Positions 1,832 through 9,086 of a stretch of 13,445 bases of DNA are shown here, one piece after another. The translations under genes and the position numbers were made by a program. How positions within the stretch are numbered: position 1 is the stretch's first letter; each line of letters begins with the position of its first letter. The stretch is from a virus (lineage: Duplodnaviria > Heunggongvirae > Uroviricota > Caudoviricetes). The notes beneath the pieces were generated by a model. That model was not told the DNA's origin, searched no databases, and saw nothing but the letters and a program-made list of their open reading frames with translations. The stretch is from IMG/VR virus record IMGVR_UViG_2654587686_000016, one strand, 5' to 3'.

Positions 1832-2010
1832 AGCCTGCTTCTCCTTGCCTTTCGGCACGTAAGAGGCTAACCTACATGTGCAAAGCATGAAATTGGCCTC
1901 AGATTAATGTTAAGCGTCTTGCCGGACGCGTAATGTTAACTGGGGCTTTTCTCTATCTGCCTTTTGGTGTTCATGCCTGAGGCAGATAGCCTCAAGCACC
2001 CGCAGCAATT
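1832..2010 (-). promoter_or_regulatory. hok mRNA 5' leader with hok-like structural elements; expected location of the overlapping mok frame and the antisense sok RNA (+ strand)
   Basis: The - strand leader contains CTTGAGGCTATCTGCCTCAGG (a tac-like stem) and TAGCCTCTTAC...CAAGGAGAAG just upstream of the hok ATG, resembling canonical hok leaders from memory. The sok promoter and exact RNA ends are not mapped. Confidence 0.45.
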
Positions 2011-2388
2011 CTAACTATCCAATAGATCAATGCCAACCTCTTTTCCTGCAACATCTCTCATCAGAAGTGACCCAAATTCATCCAATCAGCACAAAAGAAA
2101 CATTTAAAGCGTGAATGCTACCGAACGTTCATTTCAATTACATCGTTTTGATTTTTAACAGTTTTCACCTCAACAAATCAAATGGCATTAGCATTCATCA
2201 TGGAAGAAAGACTGATAAAAATGATCATTTTCAATGACTTATGATCACATCGGGTATTGCCAAGTCATTCCTTTTACGCCAGGATACCCACAAGTGAGTA
2301 GTCGAGGAGAGTTTGCCAATTTTTGCGATATAAATTTCAATGTCCGAAGAACCATTAATTGTTAATTGATTCTGTATAAGGTATTAAC

Positions 2389-3486
2389 ATGACAATTTCA
2401 TATATTCCTATTCTGAAAGCGAAACGTTCTGAGTTATCAGCTTTATCGCAGCTATCCATTGAAAAGAAATCAAAAATTTTGCCATTACTCGAAATTGAAC
2501 CAGTGCCAATTGACCCTGATTCAGGTATTGCCTTAAAGAGTTATAACGAGACTCTTATAGAGTTCGGAAAGAAAGTCTCAAAATCTTGCTCAGATATGCA
2601 AGGTGTTTATATTGATGGATTATTAATTGAAGAGCATTTTATTTCTCCTGAAGATCATTACCCTATAATAAATGCGGTTAATCAAGTTAGAGATATGGAG
2701 ATAAGAGTTATTCCTGTCAGTTCACCAACTCGCCCATCTAACTATAAAAGAGCGATTGATGAATTAATGCAGAATGAAATATGCTTGAGATTAACCACGT
2801 TAGATCTGGTTAACCCACAATTAATAACGCATTACATTAATCATCTGGGAATTCCTTTATCAAATATTGATATAATTATTGACTTAAGAGATGAGTTAAC
2901 CGAGGATAAAATTAATTCCGGCGAACTATATACTTTGGCAATGGGATTGATAAACAATCTGGCGCACCTCAATGAATACAGAAAAGTGATTCTTTCTGGG
3001 GGTTCATTTCCTACAGATCTCAGTGATATTTCTGTTGGTCTATATTCTCAACCTCGAATCGAGTGGATTTTATGGCAGAGTTTAATGAATAGAAAAGAAC
3101 TTGCCAGAAATGTGATTTATAGTGATTATGGAGTACAGCACCCCGACTTTAATAGGCTTTCGACGCGATTCCCTAGCGTATCTGCCAGCGTCAGATACTC
3201 TGGAGATAATGACTTTTGGGTATTTCGAGGAAGAGTAGCTAATCGCTTTGGTTATGAACAATATGGTAAACATAGTGAGGATATTCTTGCTCATCGAGAA
3301 TATTCAGGGCCTACATTCTGTGCGGGAGATAGAGACATAGAATATTATGCAAACGAGTATCAAGCCTACAAAGCCAATCCCTCTGGTAACTATAAATTTG
3401 GTAGCCCAGAGGTATGGCGTAGGATTGGGCAAAACCATCACATAACTAAGGTTGTTGAGCAACTCGCCACTCTTTACGGGCTTTAA
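2389..3486 (+). CDS. Uncharacterised 365-aa protein, gene A of an AT-rich accessory cassette
   Basis: Long uninterrupted ORF at about 33-35% GC (counted on two 60-nt samples), with a weak SD (AAGG) 9 nt upstream. Hydrophilic, with no TM segment and no catalytic motif I can name. Preceded by a ~500-bp AT-rich ORF-free region. Confidence 0.8.
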   Translation: MTISYIPILKAKRSELSALSQLSIEKKSKILPLLEIEPVPIDPDSGIALKSYNETLIEFGKKVSKSCSDMQGVYIDGLLIEEHFISPEDHYPIINAVNQVRDMEIRVIPVSSPTRPSNYKRAIDELMQNEICLRLTTLDLVNPQLITHYINHLGIPLSNIDIIIDLRDELTEDKINSGELYTLAMGLINNLAHLNEYRKVILSGGSFPTDLSDISVGLYSQPRIEWILWQSLMNRKELARNVIYSDYGVQHPDFNRLSTRFPSVSASVRYSGDNDFWVFRGRVANRFGYEQYGKHSEDILAHREYSGPTFCAGDRDIEYYANEYQAYKANPSGNYKFGSPEVWRRIGQNHHITKVVEQLATLYGL

Positions 3487-4024
3487 GTTTAACTCGAACA
3501 GCTTCACGAAGCTCGCCAACATCCATACTATTGGCGAGTTTTGACCATAAGACGCGTTTAGGTTTATTTTTCAAATTCTGTAGCTCCCCTACATCACTTA
3601 ATAGGGAAAGCAATTCATCTTTCCAAAGAAGCATTGTTAAGGAAAGTTTGTCCACTTGTGGATTCAACTTGCTAGTTCGAATTGTTTTTAAATGGATACC
3701 TTGCCGTGCACCTTGCGTAACTTGCTTTATCCCCCACCATGATGGAACTATGCTTAAAGCATCATAAAGATGGCAATCAGAGACAACCAAAGTTACTTTA
3801 TCCATCACTGATGAGTAATGTTGCACCTGCGCTGGTAATCTGAGCAAGTTATCACTCTTGCTCTTCAACTCATAACCATGTATAAGCCCATTGATCACTG
3901 CTATATCAGCTCTGCTAGCCCCTAGATTCATCGTAAACTCATCAATGATTAGGGTGTCAGGATCTTTATGATGATCTCTCAGAATCTTGGCATGCACAGC
4001 CTTTCTTACATCAATGTCTCTCAT
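3446..4024 (-). CDS. Uncharacterised 192-aa protein with a PD-(D/E)xK-like nuclease signature, gene B of the AT-rich cassette
   Basis: ORF convergent with gene A, overlapping it by 41 nt at the 3' ends. Motif E29 ... RA-D40-IAVI ... GY-E52-L-K54 fits the D-x(n)-(D/E)xK pattern of a hydrophobic beta-strand followed by ExK. GC roughly 37-40% on two 60-nt samples. Confidence 0.75.
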   Translation of the reverse strand: MRDIDVRKAVHAKILRDHHKDPDTLIIDEFTMNLGASRADIAVINGLIHGYELKSKSDNLLRLPAQVQHYSSVMDKVTLVVSDCHLYDALSIVPSWWGIKQVTQGARQGIHLKTIRTSKLNPQVDKLSLTMLLWKDELLSLLSDVGELQNLKNKPKRVLWSKLANSMDVGELREAVRVKLKARKEWRVAQQP

Positions 4025-4329
4025 ACCATAGTTGCGCTTTCATCGACTCTCTCAAGCCATGATTCTATATCATGGTTCGCATGAATGCCATTTGATATGA
4101 CCAGTGGTTAAACATTGCACAGAAAAGTGGATGTGTATTTTAACAAAAGCAATGACGGCTAACCATGTTGGTATGTCGATAAAATGTTTCAACGTAAGCA
4201 TTATCTGTTCCGCCCTTTCAGACGGCCTCCTGATGTTCTGAGGGTGCAGAATCCCTCCGGTTAAGGGTTTAATAAAAATCGTTTCTGATTTAAATCTTCA
4301 GTATTTAGTTGTTAGTCGGTTTATAGCCT

Positions 4330-4641: not shown

Positions 4642-4888
4642 TTCTGTTCTCCCACGTTTTCAGACTTTCACCACAGAACGGACAAAATGAAACCCGAACT
4701 GGTAATTTAGAAAATTCACCGGAACGCAACATCACAAAATCAGGACCGCGAGTTAAACTCTCATTCCAGATTTTGTATATCAGCAGACCTTTTCGCATCG
4801 TGTATTCAGCATCATGCTCAAGGGACTTTGCCAGTGCTGCACATGGTTCTATCTTGTTGCCATTAACCTGGCATTTTGATTCACTCAC
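4634..4888 (-). CDS. Hypothetical phage protein (84 aa) with a C-terminal CPFCG zinc-ribbon-like motif
   Basis: ORF with a 4-nt overlap (ATGA on the - strand) with the upstream 140-aa gene; contains Cys pairs C6/C16 and C69/C72. Confidence 0.55.
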   Translation of the reverse strand: MSESKCQVNGNKIEPCAALAKSLEHDAEYTMRKGLLIYKIWNESLTRGPDFVMLRSGEFSKLPVRVSFCPFCGESLKTWENRNE

Positions 4889-5307
4889 CGCACCACCTCC
4901 TCAAAATTCCCCTGATAAAACGCCAGTACGCGCTGCATAACTTCGCTCTTCCGGCACTCGAGACAGATTATGTTCAGACGCCTGTCGTAGCGACGTATTT
5001 CTCCGTCAGGTAATGACCAGATAAGGTCCGGATCAACCGCAGATGGTTTCTTCAGCTTTGCCCTTGAGAGCTTTTTACGGGCATTTTGCCAGTCCTTACG
5101 CGCCTGTTCAGACGGGAATAACCCGTAACCAGAGTTGTATACATCGCCACTGGCAACCAGCTCTCTGGCCAGAACGCTCATCAGATATCTTGTTGCCCCA
5201 GTTTTAGTTTCCAGTTGTCGTAACGTCTCGCGCCCACTCTGGCGTACGAGTTCAACAACCTGCCCTTTAATTTTCTCCTGCTCTTCTTGTGTAAAAACTT
5301 TTGCCAC
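4885..5307 (-). CDS. Hypothetical phage protein (140 aa), possible HTH-containing replication-associated protein
   Basis: ORF immediately downstream of the replication initiator-like gene in the same operon. The N-terminal segment ETLRQLETKTGATRYLMSVLARELV looks helix-turn-helix-like. Confidence 0.55.
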   Translation of the reverse strand: MAKVFTQEEQEKIKGQVVELVRQSGRETLRQLETKTGATRYLMSVLARELVASGDVYNSGYGLFPSEQARKDWQNARKKLSRAKLKKPSAVDPDLIWSLPDGEIRRYDRRLNIICLECRKSEVMQRVLAFYQGNFEEVVR

Positions 5308-8518: not shown

Positions 8519-9086
8519 TAGCTAACCAACGAAGCTAAGGTTGGTAATTAAGGAGTTCTCCACGGGTGAGGTGGAGTGCTTGCGCCGGACACGGGTGAGC
8601 ATCCGGCACTGACAGTTTACTGAAAGGATATTTCCCTGAAAAGTCAGACCATAACGCGAAAGCGCACGGCGAGGTAGCTGGTTCATAGATAGCCTGTCGT
8701 TAAATTTTTGTCGACCGTGCGCTTCCGGTTGTGGCAATCCGCGAAATGGCGCGGCGGTAAGTATGGCGGGGTTATTCCTTCCCCCGTTGCGGACACCGGG
8801 TTGTCAGGTTGACCATACGCTTAAGTGACAACCCCGCTGCAACGCCCTCTGTTATCAATTTTCTGGTGACGTTTGGCGGTATCAGTTTTACTCCGTGACT
8901 GCTCTGCCGCCCTTTTTAAAGTGAATTTTGTGATGTGGTGAATGCGGCTGAGCGCACGCGGAACAGTTAAAACCAAAAACAGTGTTATGGGTGGATTCTC
9001 TGTATCCGGCGTTAATTGTTAACTGGTTAACGTCACCTGGAGGCACCAGGCACCGCATCACAAAATTCATTGTTGAGGACGCGATA

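Follow-up and report, generated by a model that had tools for sequence, protein, structure and literature searches.

Two anti-phage systems validated in Escherichia coli, gop-beta-cII and PD-lambda-2, both contain a protein of the beta family. The gop-beta-cII locus of P4 confers protection from both lambda and P1 when cloned under its own promoter (PMC9122126), and earlier work cited there reports that Gop is toxic without beta and that beta neutralizes Gop, not cII (Ghisotti 1990, via PMC9122126). An accessory gene of phages, orf184, sets off cell death by way of gop-beta-cII (bioRxiv 10.1101/2023.04.06.535777). PD-lambda-2 is composed of a HigB-like protein (A), an Xre-IrrE peptidase (B), and a beta-like protein (C); toxicity resides in the Xre-peptidase and is neutralized by the HigB-like protein, and the beta-like C is needed for defense and dispensable for toxin neutralization (PMC9519451). 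The validated PD-lambda-2 insert (ECOR42 QOYB01000002, 228989-232396) extends approximately 390 nt past the three genes on either side, and any cII-like gene next to PD-lambda-2C would have been truncated in that clone, from which it follows that beta is able to act without cII. Our searches of the literature found no publications that treat beta or cII biochemically, and the papers mentioning sce7726 appear to be genome or omics descriptions. Here, we examine a locus that holds a beta-family gene (gene A) and a cII-like gene (gene B) and compare it with these systems.

A cargo island in an Escherichia coli prophage

The window, the whole stretch of 13,445 nt that was analyzed (IMG/VR record IMGVR_UViG_2654587686_000016), comes from EHEC-type E. 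coli and is a lambdoid prophage of the Rac/Qin-like kind. Inserted in this prophage, with hok/sok on one side and the Ren-like/DUF977 block on the other, is a low-GC cargo island (2002..4329), recognized from its GC and from comparison with other genomes, whose only genes are gene A (2389..3486, + strand) and gene B (3446..4024, - strand). The GC content of gene A is 37%, matching the low value remarked upon in the first-pass annotation of this DNA, that of gene B is 41%, and that of the island as a whole (1889-4329) is 38.5%; outside of the island, the left flank stands at 54% and the remainder of the window to the right at 47.5%. Directly to the left of the island are the hok/mok toxin gene (1676-1888, - strand) and the sok antisense RNA (1826-2001, - strand; Rfam RF01794, 119.8 bits), and to the right are phage genes without known function and the Ren-like/DUF977 gene.

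The island is variable prophage cargo. Among 5426 complete E. coli genomes, only 93 contain it in whole, and short matches to its flanks are found in more than 4000; elsewhere in the species, other cargo fills the position flanked by hokD and the DUF977/Ren-like gene, for example a RelA/SpoT-domain protein, an ImmA/IrrE protein with an HTH regulator, a SAM methyltransferase, QueH, a KilA-N protein, or an alpha/beta hydrolase. Copies of the island in O111, O26, and other EHEC-type genomes are 99.9% identical, and in these genomes PGAP names A a 'beta family protein' and B a 'sce7726 family protein'. The pair is also present in phage Rac-SA53, where the annotators labeled the two genes 'beta' and 'CII phage-like protein'.

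Several other features of the prophage and its relatives were recorded. The DUF977 protein near the island (4885-5307, - strand) matches phrog_142, 'Ren-like exclusion protein', at 5.5e-46, and is possibly another candidate superinfection-exclusion gene. An IS1203 element separates hok from gene A in E. coli O111 strain 11128, and an IS1 element lies to the right of gene B in Rac-SA53. The window also carries the DicF antisense RNA (8861-8912, + strand; Rfam RF00039, 76.7 bits), and in a related O111 prophage the region corresponding to it contains dicB and ydfC.

The leader and promoter region of gene A (2002..2388, + strand) is non-coding, its longest ORF not exceeding 43 aa, and holds no co-directional partner for A, gop-like or other; a + strand ORF above 43 aa is likewise absent from 1889-2388. 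Upstream of gene B (4025..4329, - strand) are a promoter-like site (4091..4062; -35 ATGGCA, -10 TAGAAT) and the right arm of an inverted repeat, although promoter and terminator scans of the locus returned matches at the level of chance. The inverted repeat, of 16 nt with 15 of 16 positions complementary, brackets the A/B pair with arms at 2174-2189 and 4084-4099, such that ATCAAATGGCATT stands upstream of each gene in the same orientation relative to that gene, and its right arm overlaps the promoter-like -35 of B. The repeat was considered as a shared operator or as the cassette ends and is kept as an observation only. Flank-spanning repeats of a different sequence occur at two related loci (L002 and L003), a weaker candidate occurs at L008, and none occurs at L004-L007.

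Gene families, predicted folds, and conserved residues

Gene A begins with an ATG preceded, 9 nt upstream, by a Shine-Dalgarno-like AAGG, and encodes 365 aa with the N-terminus MTISYIPILKAKRSELSALS, in agreement with the ORF called at 2389-3486 in the first-pass annotation. We consider it to be a real gene because of its homologues, which form 47 clusters at 90% identity and, in a profile search, 4368 clusters at 50% identity with E ≤ 1e-3 (2041 of them at E ≤ 1e-30); the best 150 of the 4368 have lengths of 345-421 aa, nearly all within 345-385 aa, and match essentially the whole profile. The first-pass annotation had tentatively placed the protein in a Beta_protein-like family, and a Pfam HMM search upheld this guess, with a match to Beta_protein (PF14350) at an E-value of 7e-52 and 177.4 bits against a cut-off of 27, in which residues 5-356 align to positions 1-341 of the 342-position model. 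By this sequence match, A is assigned to the P4 beta family. A BLASTP alignment of A with P4 beta has 22.7% identity over 383 columns (E 3e-8 in a three-sequence database). In PHROGs, A falls in phrog_9159, function unknown, and among the PADLOC models it matches those for PD-Lambda-2_C at 1.4e-40 and 7.8e-38 and the 'beta' model, derived from sequences of the P4 type, at only 1.5e-4.

Membership in sce7725 was considered for A and rejected. Its score against this family is 12.3 bits, with a cut-off of 60, the resemblance being confined to the N-terminal ~35 residues; the beta proteins of Sorangium, Corallococcus, P4, and a Gordonia phage do not match sce7725 either. The 'beta family protein' of the PanDA preprint refers to 2TM-beta effectors, which are unrelated to A. 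Nothing was found that would give A a housekeeping function or a structural role in phage.

An AlphaFold model of A, computed from a 20-sequence alignment, has a pLDDT of 91.3 and a pTM of 0.91. Strands and helices alternate along the model and are followed by a helical C-terminal region; the fold is a high-confidence prediction of a TIM barrel of the (beta/alpha)8 type. The model contains no HTH, and the sequence contains neither a Walker A motif nor a TM segment (maximum Kyte-Doolittle mean over 19 residues, 0.94), as had been noted from the letters at first reading. A profile search of PDB sequences yielded no usable homologue of A among solved structures, and the structural matches included no close or specific relative, consisting instead of dozens of unrelated TIM barrels at 7-15% identity; likewise, a published HHpred search with PD-lambda-2C returned Beta_protein alone and nothing further.

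Among 77 sequences, the residues of A that are at least 90% conserved are Y5, P7, E15, P32, E35, D76, P109, R134, D161, D165, P208, R223, R240, D246, R269, Y270, W343, R344, H350, and H351. Of these, P4 beta retains E15, D76, R134, D165, D246, and H351. When mapped onto the model, E35, D76, R134, D165, and D246 fall at the C-terminal ends of the strands predicted at 33-35, 73-76, 131-135, 160-165, and 243-246, respectively; R223 comes immediately after the strand at 217-222, and the strand at 265-271 has R269/Y270 close to its end. TIM-barrel enzymes have their active sites at the C-terminal ends of the strands, and because the invariant polar residues of A sit at barrel strand ends as they do in these enzymes, we describe A as enzyme-like. 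The term draws on residue placement read from a predicted model of a protein without a relative of known activity; under it, the acidic residues may bind metal and the arginines may bind phosphate.

Gene B encodes a 192-aa protein of the P4 cII-like/sce7726 family with a PD-(D/E)xK domain. It matches NCBIfam sce7726_fam at 1.7e-56 and 191.1 bits (cut-off 70) and the PADLOC 'cll' model at 2.4e-28, and its homologues carry the precomputed family PF26915 (Phage_P4_cII). Its identity to P4 cII, which itself scores as sce7726, is 28%. The residues E29, D40, E52, K54, D58, R62, L63, and Q66 are invariant in 43 diverse sequences of the B family, and E29...D40...E52-x-K54 supply an intact PD-(D/E)xK nuclease pattern (E...D...ExK). 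The structure predicted from an alignment of database homologues has the alpha-beta-beta-beta-alpha-beta core that, together with the D...(D/E)xK motif, distinguishes the PD-(D/E)xK superfamily, with a helical C-terminal domain next to the nuclease domain. This distinct C-terminal domain sets B apart from the MmcB-like and restriction-endonuclease-like PD-(D/E)xK nucleases, and a profile search of PDB sequences returned no sequence-level match for B among solved structures. From its fold and motif, B is predicted to be a catalytically competent PD-(D/E)xK nuclease, which sharpens the nuclease-like label it had been given previously.

Pairing, overlap, and variable partners

The convergent arrangement of A and B had been recognized in the first-pass annotation; to this we add that the two genes share a tail-to-tail, dual-coding overlap of 41 nt (3446..3486), in which residues 352-365 of A (ITKVVEQLATLYGL) are encoded antisense to residues 180-192 of B (LKARKEWRVAQQP). 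Both of these stretches contain conserved positions.

Relatives of A were surveyed by scanning one genome per species with two peptide patterns, which yielded 79 loci; given this choice of patterns, the sample is biased toward the subfamily closest to A. The loci are distributed among Proteobacteria, Bacillota, Acidobacteriota, Chloroflexota, Actinomycetota, Nitrospirota, Gemmatimonadota, Spirochaetota, Myxococcota, and other phyla. In 78 of them, the A relative is directly followed by a homologue of B (phmmer E-values of 1e-19 to 1e-93) that is invariably encoded on the other strand; the sole locus without a detectable B homologue beside its beta-like gene is L079. The coding regions overlap in 76 of the 78 A-B loci, by 8-140 nt, and one of the exceptions is L045, where the beta-like and B-like genes are 1256 nt apart. 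The length of every one of the 76 overlaps is congruent to 2 mod 3, an outcome with a chance of one in three per locus, and the frames of A and B are thus in constant relative phase. From the H351 codon of A to the R183 codon of B, 57 loci have a spacing of 34 nt and another 12 have one of 37 nt, a regularity that extends over genomes of 30-72% GC.

Searches from the side of B recovered the A/B pair in every context examined. These included a second E. coli variant in which the pair lies between the lysis genes and Nu1, another short contig, a Cronobacter chromosomal island, a P4-like primase element, and gp33/gp32 of Gordonia phage Powerball, which overlap by 89 nt near an integrase and HicAB. 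Plasmids also carry a beta-cII pair, and in different phages the pair occupies different slots. The partnership of A and B is near-obligate, and tighter than when it was first proposed; the contrary pattern, in which A would occur independently of B-like genes in most genomes, is not what the survey found. The convergent, overlapping layout of the two genes is unusually rigid and may have a regulatory purpose.

The genes accompanying this pair are variable. Searches with P4 Gop (phmmer, E ≤ 1) found no homologue among the window's ORFs of at least 40 aa, nor among the ORFs of at least 50 aa in the 79 related loci. The loci of Enterobacterales and of several Bacillales are bare A/B pairs, as in the window, and in other phyla a gene often stands just 5' of the A homologue and is tightly coupled to it, the distance between the two ranging from -31 to +20 nt. 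In 12 loci, most of which belong to Acidobacteriota, this gene encodes an FRG-domain protein (PF08867; PADLOC candidate PDC-S15) and is translationally coupled to beta (loci of this type include L013, L021-L023, L026, L027, L029, L032, L045, and L053). Elsewhere, the upstream protein contains an HTH and Peptidase_M78 and matches PD-Lambda-2_B at 1e-84 to 1e-93, with a DUF6932/PDC-M63A-like gene preceding it. Three loci (L016, 4267-7636; L049, 4216-7609; L096, 1574-4934) contain PD-lambda-2-like operons that are followed by a convergent, overlapping cII-like gene, in the order DUF6932 or hypothetical gene, Xre-IrrE peptidase, beta, and cII-like gene. The last of these is Agrobacterium pAt, in which the hypothetical gene, XRE-peptidase, beta, and convergent sce7726 gene are annotated and adjoin a reverse transcriptase and a helicase; Sinorhizobium and Marinibacterium plasmids also have peptidase and sce7726 matches close together.

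In approximately 17 further loci (among them L046, L051, L056, L064, L066, L067, L074, L077, and L080), the start of beta is overlapped by the gene for a protein of ~200 aa. A representative of this group has an HExxH motif, and neither Pfam, with which three of the proteins were scanned, nor PADLOC, with which one was scanned, gave a match; the group may be a divergent metallopeptidase partner of beta. Given that the upstream genes vary while beta and cII stay, the invariant unit is beta and cII.

A putative defense cassette and its relation to known systems

Our preferred reading, to which we give a probability of roughly 0.55, is that A and B form a two-gene anti-phage cassette in which A is the sensor or regulator and B the nuclease effector. 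A role for the cassette in defense or conflict is fairly probable; the division of labor, with B as the nuclease effector and A as a TIM-barrel sensor or regulator, is held at somewhat less than even odds. The cassette would be self-contained cargo of a lambdoid prophage that provides an abortive-infection or restriction-like defense, and this defense would favor retention of the prophage. A would use a pocket lined by E15, D76, R134, D165, R223, D246, R269/Y270, R344, and H350/H351 to bind or process an anionic ligand, probably derived from a nucleotide or nucleic acid, by which infection would be sensed and the effector controlled. A would then license or restrain B, the putative toxic partner and the nuclease effector of the minimal form. 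In other lineages, modules would have been added 5' of A, such as Gop, the Xre-IrrE peptidase and its partner, or the FRG protein, and A would couple to these as well, neutralizing Gop in P4 and enabling the peptidase system in PD-lambda-2. The proposal that A might be a sensor, antitoxin, or regulator for B, made at first reading, is plausible, although a simple, labile antitoxin would not be expected to have the large size of A or its enzyme-like invariant residues.

The convergent overlap would keep recombination from splitting A and B. There is no room for a terminator between the genes and none is predicted nearby, so their transcripts would be complementary at the 3' ends, and these complementary ends could couple or balance the expression of the two. 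Mutual control of this kind through the overlap, by antisense or transcriptional interference, is a tentative suggestion and on balance doubtful. A broader scenario, which we regard as speculative and unlikely in its entirety, would have beta-cII as an ancient, phylum-spanning core to which Gop, PD-lambda-2 A and B, and FRG proteins are add-ons, PD-lambda-2 in its published form as a system lacking its fourth component, beta as a new family of TIM-barrel enzymes by which, during infection, a nucleotide-derived signal or a nucleic-acid feature is made, destroyed, or sensed, and the overlap as an RNA-level switch that fixes how much regulator there is relative to nuclease.

Three other explanations were weighed against the cassette reading. 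If the pair were a plain toxin-antitoxin addiction module, B would be a toxin and A a non-catalytic, sequestering antitoxin, and together they would stabilize a prophage, plasmid, or island. The pairing of an acidic A (pI 5.7) with a basic B (pI 9.6), the presence of the cassette on prophages, satellites, plasmids, and islands, its position adjoining hok/sok, and the description of P4 beta as antitoxin-like (PMC9122126) all favor such a module. It is nonetheless improbable, as A is a protein of 365 aa with approximately 15 polar residues at strand ends that are invariant across phyla, unlike labile antitoxins; as toxin-antitoxin pairs are normally co-transcribed, whereas A and B are convergent and hence do not form the operon of a type II toxin-antitoxin system; and as beta-containing systems have measured anti-phage activity. 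In a restriction-modification-like division, A would be a TIM-barrel enzyme that marks self DNA or RNA, for example by a DpdA/TGT-like base exchange, and B would cut what is unmarked. Against this, PD-lambda-2C serves defense rather than self-protection (PMC9519451), and the known activity of P4 beta is to neutralize Gop, a membrane protein (PMC9122126). The structural matches of A to DpdA/TGT are no better than those to dozens of unrelated TIM barrels (7-15% identity), genes for a cofactor or for precursor synthesis were not found beside the pair, and we therefore hold this explanation to be decidedly improbable.

The historical name cII, source labels such as 'regulatory protein', and the position of the cassette in a nin-like region beside replication genes would suit a function internal to the phage, whether lysogeny control or nin-region recombination. 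Against this stand the restriction of the island to 93 of 5426 E. coli genomes when its flanks occur in more than 4000, the differing slots that the pair occupies among phages, its occurrence outside of phages in chromosomal islands and plasmids, and a GC content foreign to the prophage, which leave a phage-internal role extremely improbable.

PADLOC v2 contains no two-gene system like A/B, and matches the locus through single-protein HMMs only. The sce7725 and sce7726 families occur as a pair; B is a clear member of sce7726, and A is not a member of sce7725. The locus shares with P4 gop-beta-cII the beta and cII homologues, their convergent tail-to-tail orientation, and their status as cargo of a mobile-element hotspot. 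It differs in that P4 has gop upstream of beta whereas the window has no gop, in that P4 beta and cII are separated by a 27-nt gap with a terminator whereas A and B overlap by 41 nt, and in that P4 cII extends ~75 aa further at its C-terminus than B does. The three-gene definition of gop-beta-cII used by PADLOC and DefenseFinder is thereby matched in its beta and convergent cII and not in its gop, and because gop is absent, the locus is not gop-beta-cII by definition. Gene A corresponds to the C component of PD-lambda-2, but the window has no HigB-like or Xre-IrrE peptidase ORF upstream of A, and since the A and B components of that system are absent, the locus is not PD-lambda-2. PD-lambda-2 as published, for its part, has no cII-like member, and the operons in which a convergent cII-like gene follows beta suggest, at the level of gene order, that relatives of PD-lambda-2 have a fourth, unlisted gene.

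As far as can be told, three points appear to be unstated in the literature that we found: the cross-phylum beta-cII core, the fixed convergent overlap, and the presence of a cII-like nuclease gene with PD-lambda-2-type operons. Both families are already named by PGAP and Pfam and the type of system is already catalogued, so the practical impact of these points is modest. They lead nonetheless to the prediction that an unrecognized nuclease partner accompanies PD-lambda-2-type systems, and the survey indicates that it is beta and cII together that are conserved as a unit, rather than gop or the genes for HigB and the Xre-peptidase. The window presents the simplest setting of beta, in which a cII-like nuclease is its sole partner, and this bare pair offers a minimal, two-gene model for the function of beta proteins. 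Having neither gop nor the A and B genes of PD-lambda-2, the locus is the bare beta-cII core of both systems and, as judged from its gene content, a minimal variant of gop-beta-cII and PD-lambda-2.
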